DNA of 37,983 bases from a bacterium (GCA_025057335.1 JANWXG010000001.1:1-37983); one strand, 5' to 3'; positions 7,032-37,983 are shown, numbered from the stretch's first letter. Made by a program: numbers and translations. The notes: generated by a model not told the origin, from the sequence alone.

Positions 7032-7135
7032 TCCTGCCCGTTCCCGTCATCGAGGGCTCTGCGAGACAGCTGATGCGCGAAGGCGAGAGGAGAAGCAAAC
7101 CGAGCCGTCAGATGCCCGAACGCACCGTCTTCGGG

Positions 7136-7141
7136 TATAAT
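7136..7141 (+). promoter_or_regulatory. Candidate -10 box upstream of mnmG
   Basis: Perfect TATAAT 32 nt upstream of ATG 7173. No convincing -35 element. Confidence 0.3.
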
Positions 7142-7172
7142 ACGCTAGCAATCGCTGTGGAGATTAGTCGGC

Positions 7173-9062: not shown

Positions 9063-9169
9063 GCCTTGCCTCGCGACGAACCCACTAGAACTCGGCAGCA
9101 CTCTCTCCTGAGAATCGCTACGCCCCCTGCGTGTATCTATTCTGATGAAGAACATCGGAAAGGGTAACG

Positions 9170-9421
9170 GTGCCGATGAGCAATCAGCCACGAGTGATTG
9201 TGTTCTCCACGCCCAACTGTCCGTATTGTAATATGGCGAAGCGCTACCTGCGCGACCGGGGCATCCGCTTTCGCGACGTAGACGTCAGCCGCGACCCCGC
9301 CGCTGCGCGCGATATGGTGCGTCGGTCAGGTCAGCAGGGCGTGCCCGTCATCGATATCAACGGCAAAATCGTGGTCGGCTTCGACCGCGCTAAAATCGAC
9401 CAGCTGTTGGGACTGAAGTAA
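9170..9421 (+). CDS. Glutaredoxin-like small redox protein (YruB/NrdH-like) with a CPYC active site
   Basis: VIVFSTPNCPYCNMAKRYL...GVPVIDINGKIVVGFD; CPYC is encoded at 9218-9229. The start is GTG 9170 or ATG 9176. Confidence 0.85.
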   Translation: MPMSNQPRVIVFSTPNCPYCNMAKRYLRDRGIRFRDVDVSRDPAAARDMVRRSGQQGVPVIDINGKIVVGFDRAKIDQLLGLK

Positions 9422-9443
9422 ATCGCCACAGAGGAGGAAAGCG

Positions 9444-9734
9444 ATGAGCGAGCACACTACACCACCCATCCAGCCACTGGGTTCTCGTGTCCTGGTGCAG
9501 CCGATAGAGGAAGAGTCGCGCACAGCTGGGGGTATCTTTCTGCCCGATACCGCCAAGGAAAAGCCTCAGCTGGGCTTAGTGGTCGCCGTTGGCGACGATG
9601 AAGAAATCAAGGTTCAGGTGGGAGACAAGGTGATTTTCCCCAAGTACACAGGCACAGAGTTTCGCTATAATGGCACCGATTATCTGATTATGGAAGCGAA
9701 CGACATTCTGGCGAAACTCACGGAAGGGAGGTGA
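9444..9734 (+). CDS. groES: Co-chaperonin GroES (Hsp10)
   Basis: 96 aa. IQPLGSRVLVQPIEEESRTAGGIFLPDTAKEKPQLGLVVAVG...GDKVIFPKYTGTEF...YLIMEANDILA is the classic Cpn10 pattern including the mobile loop. Confidence 0.9.
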   Translation: MSEHTTPPIQPLGSRVLVQPIEEESRTAGGIFLPDTAKEKPQLGLVVAVGDDEEIKVQVGDKVIFPKYTGTEFRYNGTDYLIMEANDILAKLTEGR

Positions 9735-9738
9735 GGCG

Positions 9739-10719
9739 ATGGAGTGGGAGTTCCAGGTCACTCCTTCCGTTCCAGAGGAGGTATACGATGTGGCGATTAT
9801 CGGCGGCGGTCCAGCAGGTGCCACTGCCGCCATCTATGCTGCCCGCGCCAATCTGAAGACCATTGTGATTGACAAAGGCATTGCCAACGGCGCATTAGGC
9901 ATCACCAGTAGAATCGCCAACTATCCGGGCGTTCCGGGTGAAATCAGTGGGGAGGAGCTGGTGCGGCGAATGCGCCAGCAAGCGGAGTCGTTTGGGGCAG
10001 TGTTCGTGCAAGACCGCATTCAGGCAACCGACCTGCTGAGCGACCCAAAGGTGTTATTTGGTAACGCGGGAACCTACACTGCCAAGGCAGTCATCATCGC
10101 CACCGGCTCGATGGGACGAGGCAATCGCGTGCCCGGAGAGGACCGTTTGCTAGGACGAGGTGTCTCGTACTGTGCCACCTGCGACGCCGCCTTCTTCCGC
10201 GACCAGGAGGTGGCGGTTGCAGGCAGCAGCGAAGAGGCAGTGGAAGAGGCACTGTTTCTGACCGGTTTCGCCAGTCGGGTACACTTCCTCTCTCCCAAGC
10301 GGGAGCTGCACGCGGACCCCGAACTGGTGAAAGAGCTCACCGAACATCCAAAGGTGACAACGTACTGGGGCGTCACCCTGCGCGAGGTCATCGGTGAGGA
10401 CAAGGTGGAAGCAGTGCGTTACCGCACCCCCATCGGCACCGAGGAGACCTTGCCTGTCGCGGGAGTGTTCATCTACCTGCAAGGCGGACATCCGATTACC
10501 GACTTCCTCGCGGGGCAAATCTCCCTAGGCGAGGGCGGATGTATCCTGGTGGATTCGGAGTACCAAACCGCTATCCCCGGCGTGTATGCTGTAGGTGACG
10601 TGATATGTCATCATGTGAAGCAGGCAGTGGTCGCCGCTGCCGAGGGGGCTATCGCCGCAATGGCAGTAGAGAAGCAGCTGCGCGGGCGCAAGAAGCTGGT
10701 GGTGGACTGGTCTAAGTAG
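9739..10719 (+). CDS. trxB: Thioredoxin reductase family flavoprotein with a CATC redox centre and a degenerate NAD(P)H-binding site
   Basis: FAD motif DVAIIGGGPAGATAAIYAAR, redox-active CATC (10171-10182) and C-terminal GVYAVGDV. The expected GGGxxA and HRRDxxR motifs read AGSSEEA and SPKRELH (10210-10311). Confidence 0.85.
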   Translation: MEWEFQVTPSVPEEVYDVAIIGGGPAGATAAIYAARANLKTIVIDKGIANGALGITSRIANYPGVPGEISGEELVRRMRQQAESFGAVFVQDRIQATDLLSDPKVLFGNAGTYTAKAVIIATGSMGRGNRVPGEDRLLGRGVSYCATCDAAFFRDQEVAVAGSSEEAVEEALFLTGFASRVHFLSPKRELHADPELVKELTEHPKVTTYWGVTLREVIGEDKVEAVRYRTPIGTEETLPVAGVFIYLQGGHPITDFLAGQISLGEGGCILVDSEYQTAIPGVYAVGDVICHHVKQAVVAAAEGAIAAMAVEKQLRGRKKLVVDWSK

Positions 10720-18645: not shown

Positions 18646-19461
18646 GTGAAGATTCTTTTCCTAGGGACTTCAGCAGCGGAGGGAGTGCCCGGCATCTTCT
18701 GCGGATGCGAGGTGTGTCAGGTGGCTCGTCAACGGGGAGGCAAGAACCTGCGCACTCGCAGCTCGATATTCATCGACGGGGTTCTCAAGATTGACCTCCC
18801 TCCCGATACATTGCACCACGTGCTGACCTACGGCTTAGACCTATCCCGCCTGCACCATCTGCTCATCACCCATACTCACGAAGACCACCTCGCCCTGCAC
18901 GAGCTGGGCTATCTACTGCCAGGCTTCGCCCAGCGCGAACTGCCGTTAAAGGTGTATGGCAGCGCAGACTTCGCGCGAGCATTGGGTAACGCCTCCGAAA
19001 CGGTACGCAGGGCGTTGGAGGTACACGTGCTGCAACCCTTCACCCCTTACGAAATCGAGCGCTACACGGTGGTGCCTGTGCTGGCGTATCACCGTGAAGA
19101 GGAGGAGTGTTTCAACTACCTCGTGTCCGACGGAACGAAGACGGTGCTATATATGTGCGACACTGGCTGGTATCGGGAAGCCACATGGCGCTATCTGGCT
19201 GGCGTGCGGCTGGATGCCGTGATTGCCGAATGCACGAAGGGTTTCGTCGAGGCGCCGTACGATACACATCTGGGGCTGAACGACGTGTTGCAGCTGAAGG
19301 AACGGCTGCGGGCGATGGGCACTGCTCACGCGCAAACACGCTGGGTGGTGACCCACTTCTCGCACAACGGACGCCCCTTGCACGAGGAGCTGGAGGCGTT
19401 TTGCCGTCCGCATGGGGTAGAGGTGGCTTACGACGGCTGGGAGATGGCACTTTCACCGTGA
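18646..19461 (+). CDS. MBL-fold metallo-hydrolase (PhnP/PqqB-like)
   Basis: HxHxDH motif LITHTHEDHL and an N-terminal CxCxxC (FCGCEVCQ), as in PhnP-like enzymes. VKILFLGTSAAEG is a typical MBL start. The in-frame GTG 18538 is an alternative start. Confidence 0.7.
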   Translation: MKILFLGTSAAEGVPGIFCGCEVCQVARQRGGKNLRTRSSIFIDGVLKIDLPPDTLHHVLTYGLDLSRLHHLLITHTHEDHLALHELGYLLPGFAQRELPLKVYGSADFARALGNASETVRRALEVHVLQPFTPYEIERYTVVPVLAYHREEEECFNYLVSDGTKTVLYMCDTGWYREATWRYLAGVRLDAVIAECTKGFVEAPYDTHLGLNDVLQLKERLRAMGTAHAQTRWVVTHFSHNGRPLHEELEAFCRPHGVEVAYDGWEMALSP

Positions 19462-19608
19462 GAGAGTGCGTAGAGGATGTAGGGGAGGATAAGCAGCACC
19501 CGGTAACGAAAACAGCAGCGAAAGCGTCTAAAGTGCGCGAAGAGCAGGAAGAGGATTGTCGCAGAAGGAATAGTGCAAGTACCCCCTGTGGCTCCGACAG
19601 GGCAATCG

Positions 19609-19637
19609 TTGACAGCCCCCTCGTGACTTGTTACAAT
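19609..19637 (+). promoter_or_regulatory. Strong sigma70-type promoter of the pil operon
   Basis: TTGACA (19609-19614), 17-nt spacer, TACAAT (19632-19637). A purine-rich RBS GGGGGAGGAGGAGAAGG and ATG 19669 follow. Confidence 0.55.
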
Positions 19638-19668
19638 AGGGGCGACAGGGGGAGGAGGAGAAGGAACA

Positions 19669-20985
19669 ATGGCACGTGCCCGAAAAGCAACAGGACCCGT
19701 TTTAGGCTTGGATGTAGGGACGACCTTCATCAAGGTAGCGGAGGTACGTCCGAGTAAAGAAGGTGTGCAGATTAACGCCGTGGGCATGGCTCCCACGCCA
19801 GAGGGCGTTATCGACGAGAGCGGTTACGTTCAGGACCCACAGACGCTCGGACAGGCGATTCGGCAGCTGATGTCCCAAGCAGGCATCTCCACTCGACAGG
19901 TGGTCACCTCCATTCCGGGACAGAGCGCCTTGGTGGTGCGCGTTATCGAGATGCCTAAAATGAGCCCTGCCGAACTGGACAAGTCGATGGCGTGGGAAGT
20001 GGAACGACACATTCCCTTTGCCGCGCAGGGCGACGTGGTCACCGACTACGCAGTTGTGGAGCGCCCTAACGCAGACCCCAACGACCCCAATATGGAGGTA
20101 CTGCTCGCCGCTGCCCAGCAAGACGTGGTCGATGCGGTGGTCAAGGCGCTGTTTGCTGCGCAACTAGACCCCGTCGCTATCGACGTGCAGGTGCTGGCAA
20201 CGGCGCGCACTATCATCGGCTTGCAACCCGAAAAATACCGCGACAAGACCGTGGTGCTGTTGAATATCGGAGCCACAGCTACCGACATGGGCGTGTTCCA
20301 AAGCGGGGTGCTACGCCTACCACGTACCATTCCCATCGCGGGCAACCATTTCACCCAGGCGATTGTGGACTCGCTGGCGTACCGCGTGGAAGGCACAGAC
20401 CCCCGCGAAAGGTTCGCTCACGCAGAGAAGCTCAAGCGCGAGTACGCTGCGGTGCTGCTGGAGCGCCTGGGACCCACCTCCTCCCCTACCTTTGGCGCAG
20501 GCTTCGGGATGCCGACAGGAATGGTGGACTTCTCGCAACCCTCAACGCCCGGTCCTGTAGACTTCTCTGCAGGGTTCGGCGAGCCTAGCTTCGATGTAGG
20601 GGAGGAGCAGCCAGCGCCGCCCGCCCAGCCTACGCCGCCAGTGCCCGCCGAGGCAGAAGAGACCGACCCCCTACGCATCGAGGTGTTCGAGGCGATTGCT
20701 CCCGTGTTGGGAGACTTCCTCGCGGAGGTGCGTCGCTCCATAGAGTTCTATCGTGGGCGTGTACCCGGAGCGCAGGTGGACGAAATCGTGTTGTGTGGCG
20801 GCACCGCTAGAATGAAGAACATGGACCGGTTTCTGACGCAGGAGTTGGGAATCCCTGTGAGCGTCGCCGACCCGCTGACCCATCAGGAGAACCTCGTACG
20901 CCGCTACACGATGCCTTATCTGCAAGAGGTCGCTCCGCTGATGACGGTAGCTATCGGACTAGCGGTTCGGGATATGATCGACTAG
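19669..20985 (+). CDS. pilM: Type IV pilus assembly protein PilM (actin-like ATPase fold) with a ~65-aa low-complexity insert
   Basis: LGLDVGTTFIKVAEVR..., VTSIPGQSALVVRVIEMPKMSPAELDKSMAWEVERHIPF and LCGGTARMKNMDRFLTQELGIPV are PilM hallmarks. At 438 aa it is about 80 aa longer than the usual ~350 aa. Confidence 0.9.
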   Translation: MARARKATGPVLGLDVGTTFIKVAEVRPSKEGVQINAVGMAPTPEGVIDESGYVQDPQTLGQAIRQLMSQAGISTRQVVTSIPGQSALVVRVIEMPKMSPAELDKSMAWEVERHIPFAAQGDVVTDYAVVERPNADPNDPNMEVLLAAAQQDVVDAVVKALFAAQLDPVAIDVQVLATARTIIGLQPEKYRDKTVVLLNIGATATDMGVFQSGVLRLPRTIPIAGNHFTQAIVDSLAYRVEGTDPRERFAHAEKLKREYAAVLLERLGPTSSPTFGAGFGMPTGMVDFSQPSTPGPVDFSAGFGEPSFDVGEEQPAPPAQPTPPVPAEAEETDPLRIEVFEAIAPVLGDFLAEVRRSIEFYRGRVPGAQVDEIVLCGGTARMKNMDRFLTQELGIPVSVADPLTHQENLVRRYTMPYLQEVAPLMTVAIGLAVRDMID

Positions 20986-21006
20986 GCATCTGGAGGGAGG
21001 CAAGTG

Positions 21007-22011
21007 ATGCTGAAACTCAACCTACTACCCCCGAACATCTACGAACCGCGCAAGAAACGCGCGTGGTTCGCTTTGTTTCTGGTAGTGTGGATTGCTCTCG
21101 CGGGGGGATTGATTGCGTGGCAGTTGAGCCTCGTTAACCTGAAGTCGCAGAAGACCCAGGAGCTACAGCAGCAAGAGGCGATCGTGCAGCAGGTAAACCA
21201 GACGGAACAGGAAGCACAGCGCACACGGGCGATGGTAGCGCCTCTGCTCACCCGAACCCAGCTGGCAGACGAGATATTCCGCTACAACCGGCAGTATCCT
21301 AAGCTGTATCGCGAGGTGCGCCGCTGGACGATTGACACCGTGCGCTACGGAAGCATGGGCGTAGCGCAAGGGATGACGCTGCAAGCACAGGCGGTCACGC
21401 GCGACCTAGACGAGATGGCACGCTATCTGCAAATTATGCTGCGGTGTCCGTTGTTCACGGGGGTGAGCATCTCCTGGAGCGGAGCAGGTGGTACTACCAC
21501 AACGCCCACTGCGCCAATGGCAGGGCTAGGGGGCGTTGCGGGTGCTCCTCCCCTCGGAGGGGCTGTAGGCGTTCCTCCCTTCGGCGGCGCCCCGTACGGC
21601 GTCGGTGCTCCGTACGGTGCTCCTTCGGGCATCCCGGGGGCGCCTGGCACTTTTGGCGCACCTGGCGCTCCAGGCGCTGGCTGGAGAGGAACTGGGCCTA
21701 CAGGACAGCAGGCTGCGCAGCAGGGAGTCGTGTTCACCGTCGTCGCCACCTTGCGCGAGCCAGTGATGAGCCAGGTGCAGCAGCTGGTGCAGCAACTGGT
21801 CTCCTCGCTAGGTGGGGTAGGCATGCCTGGTATGGGAGGTATGGGTGCTGGCATGGGAATGCCCGGCGCACCGATGATGGGACCTGGCGTGCCCGGAGCG
21901 CCTCCGATGATGGGTGCTCCGCCCAGCATGGGCGGCGGGATGCCTCCAGTGGGCGCTCCGCCACAGGGAGCGGCGCCCGCTTTGGGAGGACGAGGTCTGA
22001 CGGTGGACTAA
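21007..22011 (+). CDS. pilN: PilN-like type IV pilus assembly protein with long Gly/Pro/Met-rich C-terminal extensions
   Basis: MLKLNLLPPNIYEPRKKR + TM helix + coiled coil is the PilN N-terminal signature. It sits immediately after pilM, and ATG 21007 is 6 nt after GGAGGGAGG. The C-terminal half is low complexity. Confidence 0.8.
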   Translation: MLKLNLLPPNIYEPRKKRAWFALFLVVWIALAGGLIAWQLSLVNLKSQKTQELQQQEAIVQQVNQTEQEAQRTRAMVAPLLTRTQLADEIFRYNRQYPKLYREVRRWTIDTVRYGSMGVAQGMTLQAQAVTRDLDEMARYLQIMLRCPLFTGVSISWSGAGGTTTTPTAPMAGLGGVAGAPPLGGAVGVPPFGGAPYGVGAPYGAPSGIPGAPGTFGAPGAPGAGWRGTGPTGQQAAQQGVVFTVVATLREPVMSQVQQLVQQLVSSLGGVGMPGMGGMGAGMGMPGAPMMGPGVPGAPPMMGAPPSMGGGMPPVGAPPQGAAPALGGRGLTVD

Positions 22012-22026
22012 AAGGAGGGTCGCAGG

Positions 22027-22884
22027 ATGCTAGGGAAACTCACCTTGCAAAACGTCATCGTCATCGGTATCGTGGTGTCGGTAGTCATCGCTTCCGGCAT
22101 CTTCTTCGTGTTGATACGCCCCACTCAGGCGGAGATTAAAAACCTGAACGCCCAGATCGAGGCGGCGAGCCAGCGGGCGGCGCAGTTGCCTGCCGCCAAG
22201 AGGCAATTGGAGGATGCGAAGAAAGAGGTGGAAGAGGCTCGCCAGAAGTGGGCGCGCTACGAGCGGTCGAAGATGCCCAATATCGACATGACAGACCGCC
22301 TGAAGGCGGCGCTGGCTTACTGGAAAGAGCCAGAGCGCACTGCGAAGGTGCTACAGGATTTCGTCTCCAAGTCACAGGATGTGGTTTTCCTAGGTGGTTT
22401 CGCTATCAACGTGCCGACCACCGACCCGAACCAGCTGCCCTGGCCTATCTGGATAGTGCCTTTGGGCACGTTCCAAGTGCAGGGTGATTTCGAGAGCATC
22501 CTGCGTCACGTGGAGCGGTGGAACAATGCACCGCGCCTTGTGCTGGTAGATGGATTGCAACTGAGCGGCGTCAGTCCTCAACTGATAGGACAGTACACCG
22601 CCACGCTATTCATCTTGCCGCGAGCAAAAGACGACAAGCCTGCAGACCTACTGCCCTCCGCAGGAGGCGCACCCGGAATGGGCATGATGCCAGGAATGAG
22701 GATGCCCGGAATGCCTAGCGCGCCAATGATGCCTGGTGCGCCCATGATGGGAGCTCCGCCCAGCATGGGCGGCGGGATGCCCCCAATGGGTGGACCGCGC
22801 CCGCCGATGGCTCCTAGCGGCGGGGCAGGAGTCACGGGTCCCGCTTTGGGCGGTCCCAGCGCGCCCGGCGTGGAGGAGTACTAA
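22027..22884 (+). CDS. pilO: PilO-like type IV pilus assembly protein with a Met/Gly/Pro-rich tail
   Basis: N-terminal TM helix, then a coiled coil (EIKNLNAQIEAASQRAAQLPAAKRQLEDAKKEVEEARQKW), then a ferredoxin-like core. Position after pilN and an AAGGAGGG RBS support the call. Confidence 0.7.
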   Translation: MLGKLTLQNVIVIGIVVSVVIASGIFFVLIRPTQAEIKNLNAQIEAASQRAAQLPAAKRQLEDAKKEVEEARQKWARYERSKMPNIDMTDRLKAALAYWKEPERTAKVLQDFVSKSQDVVFLGGFAINVPTTDPNQLPWPIWIVPLGTFQVQGDFESILRHVERWNNAPRLVLVDGLQLSGVSPQLIGQYTATLFILPRAKDDKPADLLPSAGGAPGMGMMPGMRMPGMPSAPMMPGAPMMGAPPSMGGGMPPMGGPRPPMAPSGGAGVTGPALGGPSAPGVEEY

Positions 22885-22900
22885 AGGAGGCGGTGAGACA

Positions 22901-23686
22901 ATGCAGCAGTGGCTGAACGATCCGAAGAACAGACCATTGGTCATCGGCGGAGCGATTGCGGTAGTGGTTATTGCTGTTGTCGCGGTTCTCCTGTTCATGG
23001 GCGGCGGCAGCCAGCAGACTACTCCGACTCAGACCACAACCGCTCCAGTGGGAGGACCTTCTCGAGAGGAGCTCGAGGGCGATTACGGCGTGCCTACAAC
23101 GGGGGCACCTCCGATGGCAGGCGGACCGAGGGGCGGGATGGGTATGCCTGGAATGGGTGGTATGCCACGTCCTGGCATGGGCGCACAACAGGCTGCTCAA
23201 GTGCCCGCTGGTAACCCCCCGTCGCGCTACCGCGTGGACCCGTTCAAGCCTTTGCCTTGGGAAGCGGACGTGAGCAAGCCCCCCATCCTGTCGGTGGTCA
23301 CGCCAGTGCGCCTGCAGCCTCTGCCGACGCCTCGCGTGAGGGAGGAAGAGCAGGAAGACATTCTTCCCCCGCAGCCCTACCGTCGGGTAGCAGGCATCAT
23401 GTGGGGACAGAGCGTAGCGGCAATTATCGAGACGCAGGGCGACCTGCCCCGTGTAGTGAAGCCGGGAGATACCATTGACGGGTTGCGCGTGGCACGCATC
23501 GAGCCCAACCAAGTCGTACTTTCTACACTGGGCAGGAAACCCCAGGAGATTAGCGTCAAACTGGGCGCACCGATTACCCCAGTACAGCGTGCTTTCCCCG
23601 GCGCTGGCGGTGTGCCAGGAGCAGGAGGTATCCCTGGCGTGCCTCCCGGTGGATTCCCTGGCGGCGGTGCCATGGAAGACTACTGA
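22901..23686 (+). CDS. PilP-position protein: N-terminal TM anchor, Gly/Met-rich linker, PilP/GspC-HR-like beta domain, Gly/Pro tail
   Basis: ATG 22901 follows AAGGAGG. The TM segment is LVIGGAIAVVVIAVVAVLLF. The C-terminal domain YRRVAGIMWGQSVAAIIETQGDLPRVVKPGDTIDGLRVARIEPNQVVLS matches the PilP/GspC beta-sandwich pattern. The upstream part of the track ORF (22790-) overlaps pilO. Confidence 0.55.
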   Translation: MQQWLNDPKNRPLVIGGAIAVVVIAVVAVLLFMGGGSQQTTPTQTTTAPVGGPSREELEGDYGVPTTGAPPMAGGPRGGMGMPGMGGMPRPGMGAQQAAQVPAGNPPSRYRVDPFKPLPWEADVSKPPILSVVTPVRLQPLPTPRVREEEQEDILPPQPYRRVAGIMWGQSVAAIIETQGDLPRVVKPGDTIDGLRVARIEPNQVVLSTLGRKPQEISVKLGAPITPVQRAFPGAGGVPGAGGIPGVPPGGFPGGGAMEDY

Positions 23687-23771
23687 GATTGTCCCTCGCC
23701 TTGTGCTGGACAGAGGCAGAAAGGAAGGGATTTTCGGATGATGCGCGAAAAAACCTGAGGAGGTTATCTTG

Positions 23772-24557
23772 ATGCAGAAAACGTGGCATGTGATGCTGTG
23801 CCTGATGATGCTGGTGAGCCTGACAGTATCTGGTGTGGCACAGGAAAGTAGTCCCCGAGTGACACTCAACTTGGAGAGTGCAAGCATTGCGGATGCGCTG
23901 AAGCTGCTCTTCCGCGCCACAGGCTTCAACTACACCCTAGATGAGTCCGTAGTGCAGGGGTACGTCACCGTCTCCCTGAAGGACGTGACCTTCGAGACAG
24001 CGTTGCGCACCATCCTGCGTTCAGCCAATCCTCCACTAACCTACCGCGTGGACGGGGGGGTGTATATCATCACGCCCCGCATCGAGATGCCCGACACGAC
24101 GCCGATGGAGACGCAGGTAGAGGAACCTGCCCCGGTTCAGCTGCGCACTGAGAAGATCACGATGCAGCATCTCGACTCACTGGCGATTGCCCAGATACTG
24201 GGCGGTAGCGTCGTTGCGCTCAACCAGACAGGCTGGACGTATAGCGGTGGGGGCGGTTACGGCGGCTACGGCGGTTTCGGCGGTGGCTTTGGAGGCGGCT
24301 ACGGCGGCTTCGGAGGCGGCTACGGCGGTTTCGGCGGTGGCTACGGCGGCTTCGGAGGCGGCTACGGTGGCTTCGGTGGCTTTGGCGGCTTCGGAGGCGG
24401 CTACGGCGGCTTTGGTGGCGGCTACGGTGGCCTCGGCGGTGGCTGGGGTGGTGGCGGCTTCGGCGGAGGCTTCAACCGCGGCGGCTTCGGTGGCGGTTTC
24501 GGCGGTGGCTTCGGTCGCGGCGGCGGCTGGGGCGGCGGACGCGGTGGTGGTTTCTAG
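23772..24557 (+). CDS. Secreted secretin-N-terminus (STN/N0-like) paralog ending in a 104-aa Gly-Tyr/Phe repeat tail
   Basis: Signal peptide MQKTWHVMLCLMMLVSLTVSGVAQ. STN-like domain VTLNLESASIADALKLLFRATGFNYTLDESVVQGYVTVSLKDVTFETALRTILRSANPPLTYRVDGGVYIITP. The tail is (GGYGGFG)n running to the stop. ATG 23772 is 8 nt after GAGGAGG. Confidence 0.75.
   Translation: MQKTWHVMLCLMMLVSLTVSGVAQESSPRVTLNLESASIADALKLLFRATGFNYTLDESVVQGYVTVSLKDVTFETALRTILRSANPPLTYRVDGGVYIITPRIEMPDTTPMETQVEEPAPVQLRTEKITMQHLDSLAIAQILGGSVVALNQTGWTYSGGGGYGGYGGFGGGFGGGYGGFGGGYGGFGGGYGGFGGGYGGFGGFGGFGGGYGGFGGGYGGLGGGWGGGGFGGGFNRGGFGGGFGGGFGRGGGWGGGRGGGF
24243..24554 (+). repeat. In-frame 21-nt tandem repeat encoding GGYGGFG heptads
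   Basis: GGCGGCTACGGCGG(C/T)TTCGG(A/C/T) recurs at 24295, 24316, 24337 and 24358, with degenerate copies on both sides. Confidence 0.9.
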
Positions 24558-24638
24558 TGCGTCCGCCCCCGGCACCGCCGGGTCATCGCTGCTCTGCAAG
24601 CTAACGATCTGTAACGAGTAAAAGGAGGACAGAGGTTC

Positions 24639-26318
24639 ATGACACTCCGAGGATGGCGCAATGTCGCGACGTGGTTCGTCGTGGCGTATGCTGTATGGGG
24701 TTCGCTCCCTGCAACGAGTGCTCCGCGCACTCAACAAAACATGCCTTTGGTCAGCCTGACTCTGGTGGAAGCAGAGTTTCGTGATGCAGTGAACATGCTC
24801 ATGCAACGTAGTGGAGCAAGTATTGTGTTGGAGCCGAGCGACAAACCGTACCCGCGCGTGAATGTGAACTTGGTAGACATGCCTTTGGACAAAGCGCTGG
24901 AGTACCTGGCGCGCTCCGCAGGGGCGCGTGTGCGACGCACCGAAGATGGGGTGTTCCTGATTGGTCCTGCTGACAAGGAACCAGAGGCGCCTGTGGTCAA
25001 TGCACCTGCAGAGGAGCCAGTTCTCCCGCCAGCGCCCGTGCGGCTGCGCACGGAGAAGATGAAACTGCAGTACATCAATCCCAGCGAATTCCTCATGCAG
25101 TTGCGCACGGACCCAGAGATTATCGGTATGGACTGGGCGGCACGCAACAGCGGAGCGCTTCTGCAACACCTCATGGACATGACTCGCCCTGGCATGCGCC
25201 CGCTAACTCAACCCCAGCCCATCCTGCCTACAGCGCCTCAGCAGGCTCCCACCTCGACGACCTCCACCACGAACGCTGAACATATGCCCACTCCCAACAC
25301 TGGCTTCGACCAGCGCGGCGCTATGGGCGGAGGAATGGGCTTTGGCGGACAAGTTGGTGGGTTCCGTGGTGGATTGGGCGGCTTCGGGCAGCCTGGGGTC
25401 GGCGGCGGTCTGGGACAGCCAGGTATTGGTGCTGGTGGACAACCGGGTATCGGTGGCGCCGCTGGCGGACTGCTGCAGCTGAGCGCCGATGCACGCATCA
25501 TCGCCGTAGACGTTGACAACTCGCTCATCGTCATCGGCACTGACGAGGACATCGAAACCATCCGCCGCTTCATCCGACTGCTGGATGTGGCGCCGCGACA
25601 GGTAGAGATTAAGGCGGAGTTCGTCACCGTAAAAGTCAGCGAGGTACAGCAGTTCGGTATCGACTGGCTGGTGCAGCAGCTGAATACGCAGGCGGGTAAT
25701 GTGCCTGGTACCTTCGCTCCAGGTGGCAACATCTTTATTCGCTACAGTGCGGGGAACCTGACGGCGGAGCTGCGCACGGCGCTCTCTAACTCGCGTGGTC
25801 GCGTCATCCAGGCTCCCGTCATCACTACCCTGAACAATACGCCCGGCTCTATCTTCGTACAAACCCAGGTGCCTTTCGTGACGACAGTGTTCACCACGCC
25901 GGGACAGGGACAGGTGATTCAGGGTAGTCAGGTGAACTACGTGCCTGTCGTGTCGGGTATGACCGTGACCCCGCGTATTAACGGCGACGGCACCATCACT
26001 TTGTTCATTCCGCTACAGCTGTCAGACATCACGGGTTCGGTACGTGCACCCGACGGCAGCACGTTCCCGATTATCAACAGCCAGGCGGTCTTCACCACGC
26101 GGCGCGTACCCAGCGGACAGACGGTGGTACTGGGCGGCTTCATCCGGCGCAGCGAAGACCGCTCTGTGGCGAAGTTCCCCATCCTGGGCGACCTGCCCTG
26201 GATTGGACACCTGTTCCGTTCCACCAACTTCTCACAGGACGACACCGAGCTGCTCATCTTCCTGACACCACGCATTCTCGAGGAAGCGGGAGCACCAACT
26301 ATCGGCGTTACACCCTAA
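24639..26318 (+). CDS. pilQ: Type IV pilus secretin PilQ (GspD/PilQ family) with an internal Gly-rich insert
   Basis: Signal peptide and STN-like N-terminus. Secretin_N element ARIIAVDVDNSLIVIGTDEDIETIRRFIRLLD. C-terminal secretin domain ending FPILGDLPWIGHLFRSTNFSQDDTELLIFLTPRIL. AAAGGAGG RBS upstream. Confidence 0.9.
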   Translation: MTLRGWRNVATWFVVAYAVWGSLPATSAPRTQQNMPLVSLTLVEAEFRDAVNMLMQRSGASIVLEPSDKPYPRVNVNLVDMPLDKALEYLARSAGARVRRTEDGVFLIGPADKEPEAPVVNAPAEEPVLPPAPVRLRTEKMKLQYINPSEFLMQLRTDPEIIGMDWAARNSGALLQHLMDMTRPGMRPLTQPQPILPTAPQQAPTSTTSTTNAEHMPTPNTGFDQRGAMGGGMGFGGQVGGFRGGLGGFGQPGVGGGLGQPGIGAGGQPGIGGAAGGLLQLSADARIIAVDVDNSLIVIGTDEDIETIRRFIRLLDVAPRQVEIKAEFVTVKVSEVQQFGIDWLVQQLNTQAGNVPGTFAPGGNIFIRYSAGNLTAELRTALSNSRGRVIQAPVITTLNNTPGSIFVQTQVPFVTTVFTTPGQGQVIQGSQVNYVPVVSGMTVTPRINGDGTITLFIPLQLSDITGSVRAPDGSTFPIINSQAVFTTRRVPSGQTVVLGGFIRRSEDRSVAKFPILGDLPWIGHLFRSTNFSQDDTELLIFLTPRILEEAGAPTIGVTP

Positions 26319-26348
26319 AGCGGTGTCCATTGCTCGTTACAGATCGGT

Positions 26349-26380
26349 GCGCGGGGGGACGCCCCCCGCGCTTCTCATCT
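26349..26380 (+). terminator. GC-rich hairpin downstream of pilQ (possible leaky terminator or attenuator)
   Basis: GCGCGGGGGG (26349-26358), 3-nt loop, CCCCCCGCGC (26362-26371), then TTCTCATCT. The aroK ATG lies only 5 nt further on, so read-through is likely. Confidence 0.45.
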
Positions 26381-26384
26381 ACCT

Positions 26385-26945
26385 ATGCGATGGGATGTGC
26401 CAGTAAATGTTGCGCTCATCGGTTTCATGGGCACAGGCAAGACGCTGCTTGGGCAGATGCTAGCGCAGCGATGGGGATGGCGATTCGTCGACACCGACTC
26501 GCTAGTAGAGCAACGGCTAGGATGTAGTGTTGCGCAGGTTTTCGAACGCTTTGGAGAGGAGTTCTTCCGGCAGCAAGAGACTGAGGTTCTGCGCAGTCTG
26601 GAGGTGGAGCGTCAGCTCGTTATCGCTACAGGCGGCGGTGTGCCCACACGCCCCGAGAATGTGCGTTCCCTGCGCCGACACGCCGTGCTGGTATTGCTCA
26701 CGGCAGCCCCAGAGGTGATTGTGCAACGTATACAGCCTGTGCACAGCCGCCCCAAGCTGGCTTCCGCTCCCGACGTGTTGGCGGAGGTGCATCGCCTGTT
26801 GCGCGAGCGCGAGCCCGCCTACGCTTGCGCCGACCTGCGTCTGGACACTTCTGCTCTTCACCCTGAAGAAGCCGTGCAACGCCTCGAGGAGCTGATTACC
26901 ACATGGAGACCCACTCCACGCTGTTCAGGCTCGACGTCCCTCTAG
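26385..26945 (+). CDS. aroK: Shikimate kinase
   Basis: VALIGFMGTGKTLLGQMLA (P-loop), FVDTD, and GGGVPTRPEN (the LID-preceding motif). Confidence 0.9.
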   Translation: MRWDVPVNVALIGFMGTGKTLLGQMLAQRWGWRFVDTDSLVEQRLGCSVAQVFERFGEEFFRQQETEVLRSLEVERQLVIATGGGVPTRPENVRSLRRHAVLVLLTAAPEVIVQRIQPVHSRPKLASAPDVLAEVHRLLREREPAYACADLRLDTSALHPEEAVQRLEELITTWRPTPRCSGSTSL

Positions 26946-28033
26946 GAGACCGCAGCTACCCCATTCTGGTCGGTAGGGGGGTACTGCAGCACGTTGGCGA
27001 ACACCTGCGTGCGTTGCAACCGTCGCAGTTGGCAATCCTCACCCACCCACAGCTAGCGCAGTGGTATGGTGAACCTATCGTCGCTTCCTTGCAGCAAGCC
27101 GGCATTCCCACCCACCTACTCCCCGTTCCGCCCGGTGAGCGAACGAAACGCTGGGAGGTGGTCGGACGGCTACTGCGCCAGATGGCACAGCGGGCGCTGG
27201 ACCGGCGATGCGTCGTGGTGGCGCTCGGGGGCGGCGTCATTGGCGACCTAGCGGGGTTCGTGGCGGCGTGTTACCTACGCGGTGTACGATATGTGCAGAT
27301 ACCTACGACCCTGCTGGCGCAGGTAGACTCCAGCGTGGGTGGCAAGACGGGTGTGAATCTACCGGAGGGCAAGAATCTGGTAGGAGCATTTCATCAGCCC
27401 GTGCTAGTGCTCATCGATACAGATACCCTTGCGACGTTGCCGCGTCGTCACTTTCGGGCAGGCTTGGCAGAAGTGCTGAAATACGGGCTGATCGCAGACG
27501 AAGCGCTATGGCACCTCGTGCGGGCAGAAGCCTCCTCCCTGCGGCAGGGACAGAGCGAGCGTCTAGAGGAAATAGTCTACCGCTGTTGTGCCATCAAGGC
27601 ACGGATTGTCTCCGAAGACGAGACCGAGCAAGGCGTGCGCGCCATCTTGAACTTCGGGCATACGGTCGGTCACGCGCTGGAAGCAGTGGAGGGCTATGGT
27701 CGCCTGCTGCACGGCGAGGCAGTGGCGATTGGTATGGTGTCGGCAGCGCTGGTGGGCGAGGTTGTTGGCGTGACGCCCGCTGGTACGGCGGAGGAGATAG
27801 CACGCTCACTGCAGGCGCTTGGCTTGCCCGTTACGTTGCCGCAGGGAGTGGATTTCGCACGTCTGCTCCAAGTGATGGCGCGAGACAAGAAGGCGCGAGA
27901 TGGTCAGGTGCGTTTCGTGCTGTTGGAGCGCGTGGGGCAGGCACGCTTGCCTGTCGCGGTGAATGAAGAAGCAGTGATTCGCGCCTTGAGCCTGCATCAG
28001 CAAAAGTTCGTGCAGAGAACCACAGGGGGATGA
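26903..28033 (+). CDS. aroB: 3-dehydroquinate synthase
   Basis: YPILVGRG..., GGGVIGDLAGFVAA, IPTTLLAQVDSSVGGKTGVN, GAFHQP and NFGHTVGHALE. Overlaps aroK by 43 nt. Confidence 0.95.
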   Translation: METHSTLFRLDVPLGDRSYPILVGRGVLQHVGEHLRALQPSQLAILTHPQLAQWYGEPIVASLQQAGIPTHLLPVPPGERTKRWEVVGRLLRQMAQRALDRRCVVVALGGGVIGDLAGFVAACYLRGVRYVQIPTTLLAQVDSSVGGKTGVNLPEGKNLVGAFHQPVLVLIDTDTLATLPRRHFRAGLAEVLKYGLIADEALWHLVRAEASSLRQGQSERLEEIVYRCCAIKARIVSEDETEQGVRAILNFGHTVGHALEAVEGYGRLLHGEAVAIGMVSAALVGEVVGVTPAGTAEEIARSLQALGLPVTLPQGVDFARLLQVMARDKKARDGQVRFVLLERVGQARLPVAVNEEAVIRALSLHQQKFVQRTTGG

Positions 28034-28227
28034 AAAACCGCGCCACCAAATGGATAGACCGCGGGGGAGCCGTGTGGATTGCAGTGGTCACGCTGGTGTT
28101 CCTAGGGCTACCCCTGGGATTGCCTGCGGCAAGCGTTACAGCGCTGGAGAAGGTGTACGCTGCGGTGTTGATAGTGGGAGTAGTTTGGATGGCTCGGCGC
28201 GCCATGGAAGGGGGCAAAAGGGCGTGA
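28030..28227 (+). CDS. Small hypothetical membrane protein (65 aa, two predicted TM helices)
   Basis: The ATG overlaps the aroB stop (ATGA) and the TGA overlaps the kinase start (GTGATG). Hydrophobic segments are AVWIAVVTLVFLGLPLGLPAA and VYAAVLIVGVVWMA. No recognisable family. Confidence 0.45.
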   Translation: MKNRATKWIDRGGAVWIAVVTLVFLGLPLGLPAASVTALEKVYAAVLIVGVVWMARRAMEGGKRA

Positions 28228-35688: not shown

Positions 35689-37983
35689 ATGACACGGCTG
35701 TACCACAACCTGCTGTGCGCGGTGGTGAGCGTGCTCCTGCTGGCATCCTCCGCGACGGCGAAAATCATCTACGTCTCCCCCGACGGCAACGACCTGCATG
35801 ACGGCTCCTCGTGGGCGCGCGCTAAGCGCACGGTCACTGCCGCGCTGGAAATCGCCGCCTCGCGCGACGAAATCTGGGTGCGCTCTGGCGTATACCGGGA
35901 GCGCATTACCCTCAAAAGCGGCGTCGCGCTGTACGGCGGCTTTCGCGGCACCGAGAGGAGCCTCTCCGAACGCCCCGCTTTCCCTCGCCCCTCGCCCGAC
36001 CCCTACGAGACCGTGCTGGATGGAGGGGGCAGCGGTAGCGTGGTCACCTCCCCCGCGACTGCCACCCGCGCCTACCGATTGGACGGGTTTACGGTGCGAG
36101 GCGGCAGAAGTGATAGCGGGGGTGGGCTCAGGTTGATAGGTGCCGTAGCTTCGTTGCTTACAGTGGCAAACTGCACTATTTCTGACAACCAGGCTAGTTA
36201 CGGTGGAGGGGTGTATTGTGTGGACTGTTCTCCAGCCTTCATCAACTGTACCTTTTCTGGCAACAAAGCAAGTTCTGGCGGTGGGATGTATTGCAACAAT
36301 TCTTCCCCCACCTTGAACAGCTGTACCTTTTATAACAACATGGCGGGATACCAGGGTGGAGGATTGTACTGTTGGAACAGTTCGCCTACCCTTACTGACT
36401 GCGTTATCAGCCGAAACTCCCAGCATGGTGTGTTTTGTGATGCCAACTCCTATGCTCGCTTGACCGACTGCACCATCTCCGATAACACAGGGGCAGGAGT
36501 AGTATGTTATCTCGCGTCTCCTACGCTGACGGGTTGTACCATCAGCAGAAACCAGCACCGCTGGGACGGTGGTGGAGTGATTTGCACTCGTTCATCTCCC
36601 CGTTTGAGCGACTGCATTATCACAGGTAACACAACAGGTGGACAAGGTGGCGGAGTGCTCTGTCGTGAGTGGTCTAATCCTGTCTTAGAAAACTGCATCA
36701 TTGCAAGCAACACTGCCAGTCAGCATGGAGGCGGTGTGGCTAGCGTGTACTCCTCACCTACCTTGAACGGTTGCACTATTGCAAGCAACACTGCCAGCGA
36801 GCATGGAGGCGGTGTCGCTTACCTCAGCGCTTCGTCCTACCCACCTACCTTGAGCAGATGCTCTATTACTGGCAACACCGCTGGGCGAAATGGAGGAGGG
36901 GTATACTGCTACGATCGTTCGTCGCCAATCTTCGAAAACTGTGAAGTGAGCAGTAACTTGGCTGGCGAGAATGGCGGCGGATTGTACTGCTCTGACTGGT
37001 CATCGCCCAGATTGGTAGGCTCCTCAATTCACAGCAACGCTGCCACTCGGAATGGCGGCGGGATTCACTGTGAGAGAAACTCTACACCGACGATGACAGG
37101 CTGTAACATCGCCATGAATACTGCTGTCTACGGTCATGGGGGCGGGATCTTCTGCACGGACTACTCCTCGCCAACCCTTGATAGATGCGTTGTTTCGGGC
37201 AACAATGCCAACCAGAATGGAGGAGGGATATACTGCAAGAACGCCTCGTCGCCAAGGCTAACAGTTTGCACCATTGCAAATAACAGTGCCGCTACCAGCG
37301 GAGGGGGATTGTTTTGCTACTACAACTCTGAACCAGTTCTCAACAGATGTACACTTTCTGGTAACAGGGCGGATTACGGAGGCGGGATTTACGCTGAGTA
37401 CAGCTCCTCAACTCGCCTGTCTGATTGCGTACTTGCTGCCAACCTCGCTGATTGGCAGGGAGGTGGACTGTTTTGCTGGGACGCCTCCTTCTCTACATTG
37501 TTTTGCTGTACTGTTGTCGGTAACAGTGCGAATGCAGAGGGAGGTGGTCTATACTGCGGTGCGGATTCAGGGTTGGCTCTTTACAGCTCCATTGTTTCAC
37601 GTAACCGCGCCAACAGCCATGGAGGCGGTATGTACGCAGATGACACTTCGAGGCTTTCCATAGTCAACTGTACGCTGACCTATAATGAAGCATACGACTC
37701 TGCAGGGATATGGTCACAGGCAGTGTCAAGAGTTGTCAACAGCATACTCGCCTTCAACCGCGGCGGCGGAGTTCGCCTGCCCGGCGATGCGGTGTTCCGT
37801 CACAACTGTGTGTGGGGCAACACGCCCTACAATTTCGCAGGCGACATCGGCAACCCCGTCGGTATGGATGGCAACATCTCTGCGGACCCGTTAATAGCAG
37901 GGGGGCATCTGCTGCCTGGTTCTCCATGCATCAATGCGGGCACTGACGAATCTTCCACCCCACTCGACATCGACGGCGAGCCG
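35689..37983 (+). CDS. Secreted right-handed parallel beta-helix repeat protein (PbH1/pectate-lyase-fold, choice-of-anchor-Q-like), 5' 765 codons; continues beyond the window end
   Basis: Absent from the ORF track (no stop in the window); I translated it by hand and found no in-frame stop. GAAGGAGG lies 9 nt before ATG 35689. Signal peptide MTRLYHNLLCAVVSVLLLASSATA, then KIIYVSPDGNDLHDGSSWARAKRTV..., then about 20 coils of ...N.A...GGG(V/L/I)(Y/F)C...SSP.L..C.I..N... . The end reads HLLPGSPCINAGTDESSTPLDIDGEP. Confidence 0.85.
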   Translation, partial: MTRLYHNLLCAVVSVLLLASSATAKIIYVSPDGNDLHDGSSWARAKRTVTAALEIAASRDEIWVRSGVYRERITLKSGVALYGGFRGTERSLSERPAFPRPSPDPYETVLDGGGSGSVVTSPATATRAYRLDGFTVRGGRSDSGGGLRLIGAVASLLTVANCTISDNQASYGGGVYCVDCSPAFINCTFSGNKASSGGGMYCNNSSPTLNSCTFYNNMAGYQGGGLYCWNSSPTLTDCVISRNSQHGVFCDANSYARLTDCTISDNTGAGVVCYLASPTLTGCTISRNQHRWDGGGVICTRSSPRLSDCIITGNTTGGQGGGVLCREWSNPVLENCIIASNTASQHGGGVASVYSSPTLNGCTIASNTASEHGGGVAYLSASSYPPTLSRCSITGNTAGRNGGGVYCYDRSSPIFENCEVSSNLAGENGGGLYCSDWSSPRLVGSSIHSNAATRNGGGIHCERNSTPTMTGCNIAMNTAVYGHGGGIFCTDYSSPTLDRCVVSGNNANQNGGGIYCKNASSPRLTVCTIANNSAATSGGGLFCYYNSEPVLNRCTLSGNRADYGGGIYAEYSSSTRLSDCVLAANLADWQGGGLFCWDASFSTLFCCTVVGNSANAEGGGLYCGADSGLALYSSIVSRNRANSHGGGMYADDTSRLSIVNCTLTYNEAYDSAGIWSQAVSRVVNSILAFNRGGGVRLPGDAVFRHNCVWGNTPYNFAGDIGNPVGMDGNISADPLIAGGHLLPGSPCINAGTDESSTPLDIDGEP

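Follow-up and report, generated by a model that had tools for sequence, protein, structure and literature searches.

Gly-rich segments in the periplasmic proteins of an Armatimonadota pil operon

A stretch of 37,983 nucleotides of bacterial DNA (GCA_025057335.1 JANWXG010000001.1:1-37983; "the window" hereafter means this whole stretch) holds, at positions 19,609 to 26,380, a run of six genes that domain and profile matches (and, for PilO, chiefly gene position) assign to the type IVa pilus (T4aP) alignment/secretin module of an Armatimonadota bacterium, i.e., PilM, PilN, PilO, PilP and PilQ plus an extra N0 paralog of PilQ, named STNp here. Gly-rich, low-entropy segments were found in five of the six encoded proteins, namely PilN (two segments), PilO, PilP (two segments), STNp and PilQ, at coordinates that agree with those of an initial annotation made from the sequence, and together they come to about 547 low-complexity residues for each set of five proteins. 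Because each segment follows a transmembrane (TM) helix or a signal peptide in the sequence, all of them were placed in the periplasm. When the residues of the five periplasmic proteins were shuffled, the observed maximum of Gly per 30 amino acids (aa) was equalled in 0-40 of 2000 shuffles; for the minimum entropy the number was 0-3 of the 2000. We give an even chance to the reading that these segments serve as flexible spacers or linkers and tethers which couple a short, AMIN-less secretin to the inner-membrane platform across a wide periplasm. All features from the promoter-like site to aroB given with coordinates below lie on the plus strand.

The spread of the segments was followed with a locus scan restricted to one genome per GTDB species, which returned 80 loci; three further contigs (L001-L003) were added separately. 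All 80 loci were from Armatimonadota (Chthonomonadales, Armatimonadales, Capsulimonadaceae, Hebobacteria and an HR16-like clade), and the gene order pilM-N-O-P-STNp-Q recurred throughout, over genome GC contents of 0.48-0.70 and PilM identities down to 35%. One locus (L061, JBPBQB010000048.1) comes from a metagenome-assembled genome (MAG) labelled Janthinobacterium lividum, yet it holds a typical Armatimonadota pil cluster with a PilM that is 37% identical to that of the window and the same six-gene order; the label probably reflects misbinning of the public entry.

Segments were scored by a strict measure, in which at least 30 residues had to be covered by 30-aa windows with Gly of at least 30% and entropy of at most 2.9 bits. 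By this measure a Gly-rich segment was present in 90% of the PilN, 83% of the PilO, 77% of the PilP, 83% of the STNp and 86% of the PilQ orthologs, as compared with 8% of the PilM orthologs, 9% of the flanking open reading frames (ORFs; n = 502), 13% of those flanking ORFs with a signal- or TM-like N-terminus (n = 114) and 0 of 100 flanking ORFs in the closest clade. The counts lack phylogenetic independence, and the genes behind them were called by a simple longest-ORF procedure. A looser measure (30% Gly in 20 aa) was dropped because it also picked up giant beta-propeller and beta-helix proteins, whose Gly-rich regions are folded. Median ortholog lengths were 505 aa for PilM, 320 aa for PilN, 268 aa for PilO and 278 aa for PilP; the solved homologs measure 336-357 aa for PilM, 225 aa for Myxococcus xanthus PilN, 205 aa for PilO and 181 aa for Neisseria meningitidis PilP. 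The ortholog comparison that the initial annotation had put forward came out in its favor, with segments conserved in position and composition across about 80 species, and so did a comparison with neighboring genes, with 77-90% of the orthologs at the five pil positions carrying segments against 9% of the 502 flanking ORFs.

The same in-frame segments were recovered from about 80 independent assemblies, closed chromosomes among them, with conserved end motifs downstream of the segments, and a PilM identical to that of the window is on record at NCBI from an Armatimonadota MAG. These observations leave very little room for artefacts of assembly or frameshift, already named in the initial annotation, or for miscalled ORFs, and we regard this explanation as highly improbable. 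What speaks for it is that the repeats do disturb assemblies: locus L004 (CAZOGB010000018.1) has an N run inside the PilO tail and a contig end inside the STNp tail. Since repeat-encoding DNA breaks short-read assemblies in this way, tail lengths taken from MAGs may be underestimates. The segments are neither artefacts nor private to this genome.

Gly-rich low complexity was also met outside the pilus proteins. In Capsulimonadaceae/Armatimonadales loci, the genes upstream of pilM include three families, located in L057 at 6416-7306, 7374-8900 and 9026-9865. The proteins are a secreted DUF5666 protein with GGF/GGP-rich ends, a TolC-like OEP protein whose linker is (TG)n, and a membrane protein that starts with MAHLYASFADA and has a Gly/Ala/Thr-rich region and a glycine-zipper-like TM segment. 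The families recur in L062, L070, L073, L045, L061, L065-L067, L079, L080 and L083. As these unrelated envelope proteins near pilM are Gly-rich, Gly-rich low complexity is not confined to the pilus proteins of the phylum, and this points to a wider trait of the envelope, at its densest in the pilus machine. The generic compositional drift which the initial annotation had set against its own interpretation was to that extent found, on the DUF5666 and TolC-like proteins of some lineages.

Two composition classes kept apart across the phylum

In genomes whose PilM is 84-87% identical to that of the window, the protein cores aligned nearly without gaps and the segments were laden with indels, every one of them in frame. 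Beyond the indels the end motifs were kept among close relatives (PilO GAEEY, PilP GLLEEY, PilN GRGAMAE and STNp GGRGGF). The alignments thus describe segments whose sequence and length drift fast and whose composition, position and, in some cases, end motifs persist. Phylum-wide, the PilN, PilO and PilP segments contained 35% Gly, 15% Pro, 12% Ala, 6-9% Met and about 4% aromatics; STNp tails contained 52% Gly, 1.3% Pro, 12.4% Phe, Tyr and Trp together and 2.7% Arg, and the PilQ segment was intermediate between the two classes. When the classes were paired within genomes, STNp had the lower Pro content in all 50 pairs and the higher aromatic content in 44 of the 50. A rule of thumb for elastomers holds that chains with 2 × Pro + Gly of about 0.6 or more form neither regular secondary structure nor amyloid; the PilN, PilO and PilP segments lie above this line (median 0.66) and the STNp tails below it (median 0.55). 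With Gly and Pro making up about 50% of the residues, the former segments should be unable to form regular secondary structure.

Two compositions kept apart at neighboring genes throughout the phylum are the strongest evidence here for selection on composition, since a single mutational process would not hold them apart, and we infer that selection acts on the position and composition of the segments and not on their sequence. This evidence bears directly on a largely neutral explanation, in which replication slippage and unequal recombination expand GC-rich (GGN/CCN/GCN) repeats at insertion-tolerant loops and termini, and the products last through being harmless and not through any function. 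Traces of such processes are present in the DNA itself. The STNp tail is encoded by a tandem array (24252-24444, period 21, 9.3 copies), and the pilN and pilO tails share a 58-nucleotide direct repeat, 88% identical (21904-21961 and 22741-22798), both copies of which encode MMGAPPSMGGGMPP. This identity is absent from close relatives, though the composition of their tails is similar, which points to a recent exchange between the neighboring tails in this genome, by gene conversion or unequal recombination. Segment lengths vary greatly, with frequent indels among close relatives, the amount of Gly-rich sequence tracks genome GC (Spearman 0.41), some lineages lack the segments at individual positions, and similar segments occur on the DUF5666 protein and the TolC-like OEP protein with its TG repeats. 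Neutral expansion fails, on the other hand, to account for the difference between the five pil positions (77-90%) and the flanking ORFs of the same genomes (9-13%), for persistence over deep divergence including genomes of 48-50% GC (L076, L063), for a position-specific composition held in 50 of 50 genomes, or for end motifs conserved past indel-rich stretches with all indels in frame. We give largely neutral expansion about one chance in four, and hold the reading of the segments as flexible spacers and tethers to be better placed.

PilN, PilO and the PilP/GspC-like protein

Pfam and NCBIfam models run on single sequences failed to recognise PilN, PilO and PilP. Profiles were consequently built from the cores of about 20 orthologs each and searched against PDB sequences. 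pilN (21004-22011) encodes 335 aa with an LNLLPP PilM-binding motif, one TM helix and a periplasmic core; its single sequence gave no significant Pfam match, and its ortholog profile (A3) matched M. xanthus PilN (3jc8_N) with E = 2.2e-12. The protein starts with MLKLNLLPP, in which, among 19 orthologs, L7 and P9 were invariant and N6 and L8 were found in at least 90%. Its first segment (aa 151-247, 21454-21744), rich in Gly, Pro and Ala, is a loop insertion preceding the last beta-strand, GVVFTVVATL. It is rich in indels among close relatives and, because the equivalent loop of L002 has only about 13 aa, it can be viewed as an expandable loop. The C-terminal part (aa 254-335, 21763-22008) comprises the conserved helix-like QVQQLVQQLVSSLGG and, after it, a Gly/Met/Pro tail that ends in GRGLTVD; both parts contain 27-28% Gly. 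The QVQQLVQQLVSSLGG stretch itself (aa 263-279, 21790-21840), situated between the two Gly-rich segments, is rich in Gln, Leu and Val and conserved in the HR16-like clade; it looks amphipathic-helical and could be an interaction element. The end of the tail reads GRGA[MV]AE/D in 8 of 11 aligned HR16-like genomes and GRG[LM][ST][IV]D in the window and L007.

The gene in the pilO position (22027-22884, 285 aa) encodes a TM helix, a coiled coil and a periplasmic core. The initial annotation had called it PilO, a name that position and layout fit and to which homology adds a weak signal: against Pfam PilO (PF04350) it scored E = 6e-4 and 20.3 bits, under the 22-bit cut-off, and the top PDB match of its profile (A2) was M. 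xanthus PilO (3jc8_O) with a weak E of 7e-4 over two stretches. On gene position, the TM and coiled-coil layout and this weak homology, we tentatively retain the name. The C-terminal Gly/Met/Pro tail (aa 213-285, 22663-22881; 27% Gly) ends in GVEEY, and the tail end E[ED]Y was retained in 10 of 11 HR16-like genomes despite numerous in-frame indels.

The fourth gene (22898-23686) starts at the ATG at 22898 and not at the GTG at 22790, as judged from the ortholog alignment, and encodes 262 aa comprising a TM anchor, a linker, a DPF motif, an HR domain and a tail. Its profile (A4) matched N. meningitidis PilP (4av2_M, 5e-6; 2ivw_A, 1.6e-5) and also OutC/GspC (6hcg_e, 8e-6; 3oss_C, 2e-3), by which the product is classed as a PilP/GspC-like protein with an HR domain of the secretin-N0-binding type. 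Its N-terminus, MQQWLNDPKNRPLVIGGAIAVVVIAVVAVLLFMGGG, lacks a lipobox Cys and has a TM anchor instead, as in GspC. The first segment is a Gly/Met/Pro linker (aa 50-109, 23045-23224) that runs from the anchor to the DPF motif and HR domain, and the second a Gly/Pro C-terminal tail (aa 218-262, 23549-23683) ending in GAMEDY; they contain 27-29% Gly, and the tail end E[ED]Y was kept in 9 of 9 aligned close relatives. Just ahead of the HR domain lies an RxDPFxP-type motif, SRYRVDPFKPLPWE (aa 109-121, 23222-23260), whose D6, P7 and F8 were invariant, with R in at least 90%, among 20 diverse orthologs; it is a candidate PilN/PilO-binding peptide.

A universal docking motif at the tips of PilN, PilO and PilP was considered and dropped, since the acidic or aromatic tips are clade-specific and no phylum-wide tip motif was found on the three proteins. 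Copper-binding Met motifs were set aside as well: only some lineages are enriched in Met, and L002 and L003 are not among them.

STNp and PilQ

The gene for STNp (23769-24557) encodes a secreted protein of 262 aa with a signal peptide, an N0/STN domain (PF07660, 1e-10), the first beta-alpha unit of the next N domain and a tail. Its N-terminus is 34% identical to PilQ aa 32-147 over 117 aa (E = 9e-16), and by this alignment STNp is classed as a true PilQ paralog that covers N0 and the first beta-alpha of the following domain. A chimera of the STNp beta-alpha and the C-terminal half-domain of PilQ did not extend the Secretin_N match, and as this was uninformative, the half N domain is proposed from the PilQ alignment. 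STNp was found at this position in at least 56 loci, and the matches to its N-terminal domain were all from close relatives within Armatimonadota, recorded as 'hypothetical' or 'STN domain-containing'. Its tail (aa 159-262, 24243-24554) is Pro-free, consists of (GGYGGFG)n with FNR/RGG elements and ends in GGRGGGF; the whole Gly-rich segment (aa 136-262) is 60% Gly. Within the 104 aa of the tail are 25 aromatics, 13 FG, 8 YG, 2 WG and 3 Arg, with Gly-only spacers. The embedded motif GGGFNRGGFGGGW persists among close relatives, and 35 of 56 orthologs end in R-x(0-3)-aromatic, aromatic-R or aromatic-G-R. In the AlphaFold model the tail has no secondary structure and a predicted local distance difference test (pLDDT) score of 28-41, within a model that is poor overall (pLDDT 38.7), probably owing to a shallow alignment.

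pilQ (24639-26318) encodes a secretin of 559 aa with a signal peptide, N0, one split N domain and the secretin domain; the matches were PF00263 (4e-41, aa 383-547), PF03958 (2.8e-7, aa 282-321) and STN (2.4e-3, aa 72-111), and the score against the TIGR02515 subfamily model was 176 bits, under the cut-off of 284. The Gly/Gln/Phe-rich segment (aa 208-293, 25260-25517; 34% Gly), whose start motif NTGFDQRGA persists among close relatives, belongs to an insertion of about 110 aa in the alpha1-beta2 loop of the single N domain. A spliced construct (aa ~137-164 joined to 276-328) matched Secretin_N positions 5-69 of 69 with 40.0 bits, as compared with positions 30-69 and 34.5 bits for the C-terminal half-domain alone, which lends modest support to an N domain split by the insertion. 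AMIN domains of PilQ, which bind peptidoglycan, are common but not universal; none was detected by Pfam in PilQ of the window, nor among the families listed for PilQ of L001-L003.

The properties of the STNp tail bear on a cohesive mesh or condensate, the idea that the initial annotation likened to FG-nucleoporins or the GroEL GGM tails, in which the STNp tail, the PilQ loop and the Met-rich tails would fill the periplasmic cage or secretin vestibule and gate permeability or form a seal around the pilus. The tail has a sticker-spacer makeup, with its 25 aromatics, 3 Arg and 13 FG in 104 aa and no Pro, and this is kept phylum-wide; moreover, T4aP machines have 12-15-fold stoichiometry, by which the approximately 547 low-complexity residues per set become some 6,500-8,000 disordered residues per machine at high local density. 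The PilN, PilO and PilP segments fit such a mesh poorly, as elastomer-like compositions of about 15% Pro and 35% Gly favor hydrated, non-cohesive chains. Secretins, further, already possess a folded gate, and the PilM insert, being cytoplasmic and on the opposite side of the membrane, cannot line a periplasmic conduit. FG-nucleoporins have polar spacers and about 1 FG per 15-20 residues; the STNp tail, unlike them, has one aromatic per four residues and pure Gly spacers, and the PilN, PilO and PilP segments have about 4% aromatics and 15% Pro. The FG-like resemblance is compositional and would be limited to the STNp tail and the PilQ loop. Taken together, a mesh seems unlikely to us. A bolder form of it, in which a dozen or more copies of the STNp tail and PilQ loop would form a cohesive periplasmic gel at the secretin base with the PilN, PilO and PilP tails as the surrounding brush, is slightly less likely still; if true, the gel might close or gate the conduit, or serve to trap DNA or peptidoglycan, as a periplasmic counterpart of the FG-nucleoporin barrier with a dedicated scaffold protein.

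The same tail might instead bind a ligand in the manner of velcro, either by stacking, perhaps together with the PilQ loop, on peptidoglycan glycans, so as to anchor the secretin in place of AMIN, or by binding incoming DNA through RGG/FNR during transformation. In Thermus and Neisseria, DNA is taken up through secretins of the PilQ type. In keeping with ligand binding, AMIN was not detected in PilQ of the window or of the three relatives, the peptidoglycan layer of the armatimonadote Fervidibacter is thick, and the tails are rich in Tyr, Phe and Trp with Arg near the end, the patterned ends recurring in 35 of 56 orthologs. The case is purely one of composition, though; Arg is low (2.7%), and the tail has no homology to a known peptidoglycan- or DNA-binding module. 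We judge a ligand-binding role improbable, to about the same degree as the mesh, and return to flexible spacers and tethers as the preferred reading.

PilM and its cytoplasmic insert

pilM (19669-20985) encodes the cytoplasmic actin-like ATPase of the T4aP alignment subcomplex (438 aa; PF11104, 4e-51; TIGR01175, 209.6 bits with a cut-off of 133). Its AlphaFold model (pLDDT 79) had the Thermus PilM-PilN structure 2ych_A as top Foldseek match (TM-score 0.91, E = 7e-29). The initial annotation was right in its identification of PilM, as it was for PilN, the PilP-position protein, the secretin paralog and PilQ (TIGR01175, the profile matches, the 34% identity and PF00263), and it counted the PilM insert among the Gly-rich segments. 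The five periplasmic proteins bear out that description; the PilM insert (aa 268-334, 20470-20670) does not. It is a disordered loop, by composition and pLDDT, with an SFDV motif, is rich in Pro, acidic residues and Phe (22% Pro, 13% Gly, net charge -10), and has a Gly maximum that was equalled in 453 of 2000 residue shuffles and is thus not significant; residues 269-329 have a pLDDT of about 30 within an otherwise confident fold.

An insert of 57-167 aa, rich in Pro, Ala, Gly, Asp and Glu and with a median charge of -13, was present in 84 of 84 PilM orthologs. An F[DN] dipeptide occurred in it in 78 of the 84, in 1-7 copies and mostly in a [PS]FD[LVF]-acidic context, and in a 14-sequence alignment D309 was invariant and F308 nearly so. 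The insert looks like a cytoplasmic acidic tether with a putative short docking motif, and would be a phenomenon separate from the periplasmic segments; the [PS]FD[LVF] motif probably docks some cytoplasmic partner.

Layout and genomic context of the operon

The six ORFs are closely spaced and all in the same direction (19669-20985, 21004-22011, 22027-22884, 22898-23686, 23769-24557 and 24639-26318), in the order pilM, pilN, pilO, pilP/gspC-like, STNp and pilQ, and are followed by aroK (26385-26945; PF01202, 2e-39) and aroB (26903-28033; PF24621 and PF01761, about 1e-48 to 1e-50), which overlap by 43 nucleotides (26903-26945). A promoter-like site of sigma-70 type, TTGACA-17-TACAAT (19609-19637), lies 31 nucleotides 5′ of the pilM ATG and matches at 11 of 12 positions, with a TG ahead of the -10 element; it is a consensus match and the sole one in 19300-28200, where shuffled sequence averages 1.8 sites. 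The near-consensus promoter, the six tightly spaced genes on one strand and the adjoining aroK-aroB described in the initial annotation were thus all found. The pilQ-aroK-aroB linkage, known from Proteobacteria, is present in the HR16-like clade (the window and L001) and absent in L002, where ribosomal protein genes stand instead, and in L003.

Window GC is about 60% and uniform, and the closest relatives of the genome (84-87% PilM identity) include hot-spring bins such as 'bacterium HR16'. The remaining genes of the window are housekeeping genes, encoding a major facilitator superfamily (MFS) transporter, LpxK, an ATP-binding cassette (ABC) ATPase, MnmG, a thioredoxin-reductase-like protein, KDPG aldolase, PfkB, UDG, a PASTA kinase, Rpe, RibD and DapF, together with a beta-helix protein. 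LpxK implies an outer membrane that contains lipopolysaccharide. The beta-helix protein is encoded by an ORF cut by the end of the window (35689-37983) and is right-handed beta-helix/NosD-like (PF13229, 6e-58); its 14% Gly sits in folded repeats and is not low complexity. Genes for PilB, PilT, PilC and pilins were not found within the 38 kb window.

In many loci, outside the clade of the window, giant ORFs of 2,100-3,800 aa are located directly 5′ of pilM (L002 1-9798 and L003 1-9744; also L016-L018, L023, L031, L035, L060, L072 and L075). Those of L002 and L003 have PQQ-like beta-propeller or Golvesin_C families on record in Pfam, and the arrangement may be a conserved pairing of the pilus operon with an adhesin-like protein.

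Comparison with known systems

With the canonical PilMNOPQ of M. xanthus (3jc8), Pseudomonas aeruginosa and N. meningitidis the locus shares gene order and, in this clade, the aroK-aroB neighbors, as well as the PilM fold, the INLLP-type motif of PilN, the HR domain of PilP and the N0, N and secretin domains of PilQ. It differs in that every periplasmic component is at least 60-110 aa longer through Gly-rich segments, PilP is TM-anchored like GspC and not lipid-anchored, PilQ has no detected AMIN domain, an extra N0 paralog stands between pilP and pilQ, and PilM has its acidic insert of 57-167 aa.

The initial annotation had held that canonical components lack such segments. This is partly mistaken, as Neisseria PilP and PilQ and Thermus PilW show. 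Neisseria PilP has an unstructured Pro-rich region of 60-70 residues, and neisserial PilQ has polymorphic low-complexity 'small basic repeats' that affect piliation and have been described as unprecedented among secretins (PMC3441751). These occupy positions equivalent to those seen here, the PilQ repeat between the N-terminal domains and the PilP stretch between anchor and HR domain; their composition is basic or Ala/Pro-rich where it is Gly-rich here, Neisseria has no PilN/PilO tails and no paralog, and low-complexity secretin repeats are here the rule for a whole phylum. An unstructured stretch in Vibrio cholerae PilP has been proposed to permit compaction of the machine (PMC12632996). In Thermus, PilW, which takes the PilP position, is Gly/Pro-rich and has been proposed as a flexible trans-periplasmic linker across a periplasm of about 70 nm (PMC13039148). 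The two systems, both of Terrabacteria diderms, share a Gly/Pro-rich periplasmic component that is proposed to bridge the inner-membrane platform and the secretin, a likeness of the PilP-like protein to PilW in position and composition. They differ in PilQ, which has 757 aa in Thermus and is lengthened by extra folded ring domains (PMC5745081), and is short here (559 aa), with the disordered material distributed over five proteins and including free C-terminal tails.

TonB and GspC linkers likewise combine an inner-membrane anchor with a disordered, Pro-rich stretch that lets a C-terminal domain reach an outer-membrane partner bearing STN/N0; the present segments are Gly-dominated and not Pro/Glu/Lys-rich, and include free C-terminal tails. 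FG-nucleoporins and the (GGM)n tails of GroEL also place many Gly-rich, Phe- or Met-containing disordered chains on a ring assembly. This is an analogy of composition without homology, with Gly or Pro and not polar residues as spacers and with the periplasm as the compartment.

For the phylum itself, cryo-electron tomography of Fervidibacter sacchari, a cultured armatimonadote of a different class, gave a periplasm of 55.5 nm and a peptidoglycan of about 12.5 nm (PMC11535203). Fimbriimonas, of the same phylum, has pilB, pilC, pilD and pilT genes and fimbriae, and its genome paper named only PilB, C, D, Q and M (PMC4072686). The literature examined gives no account of such segments for Armatimonadota, nor of Gly-rich tails on PilN or PilO, a C-terminal tail on PilP, a split PilQ N domain, an N0 paralog with a Gly/aromatic tail or a PilM insert.

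Proposed mechanism and significance

Of the three mechanisms offered in the initial annotation, the elastic spacer appears the best supported, judged by the precedent of Thermus and the wide periplasm of Fervidibacter sacchari. In the arrangement that we propose, the Gly/Pro linker of PilP, between anchor and HR domain, and the PilQ loop of about 110 residues that splits the N domain would be extensible linkers. They would keep a short secretin, with one N0, one N and no AMIN domain, coupled to the inner-membrane platform over a periplasm presumably about twice the width of that in Proteobacteria and through thick peptidoglycan. At a contour of about 0.36 nm per residue, 60-110 residues correspond to a calculated 20-40 nm. 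The free C-terminal Gly/Pro/Ala/Met tails of PilN, PilO and PilP would act as flexible tethers or entropic bristles, whose tips in some clades may offer short motifs (E[ED]Y; GRGA[MV]AE/D in PilN) to some partner. The Pro-free Gly/aromatic/Arg tail of STNp would be a different, sticker-spacer material, and its second N0 module would probably join or stack on the ring of PilQ N0 and PilP. The PilM insert would act separately, as a cytoplasmic acidic tether with its [PS]FD[LVF] docking motifs.

Several points weigh against this reading. The correlation of the Gly-rich amount with genome GC means that part of the signal is mutational; where genome GC is lower, certain positions have a Pro/Gln/Thr-rich linker in place of a Gly-rich one, or none at all. 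In L002, L026, L032, L038 and L068, PilO or PilQ has a short Gly-rich tail or lacks one, so the machine can evidently do without them at single positions. The C-terminal tails have a free end and could act as spacers only if their tips dock, and at least two acidic residues among the last five were found only in 11 of 80 PilN, 13 of 76 PilO and 20 of 67 PilP. The sole periplasm width on record comes from another class of the phylum, and the disorder of the periplasmic segments is read from their composition, with one tail model of low quality (pLDDT 38.7).

The locus makes plain why PilN, PilO and PilP have gone unannotated in Armatimonadota genomes. The practical value of the finding is modest until the machine is imaged or mutated; its biological interest lies in how a trans-envelope machine is made to fit the distance between membranes. 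For diderm Terrabacteria with a wide periplasm and thick wall, the Thermus solution alone is known, in which folded rings are added together with one Gly/Pro-rich protein. This clade appears to solve the problem otherwise, with a short secretin, an additional N0 module and disordered linkers and tails throughout the periplasmic components, and with two composition classes kept separate for the whole history of the phylum. It is thereby a natural setting in which to study what is gained by selection on the composition of disordered regions in the bacterial periplasm.

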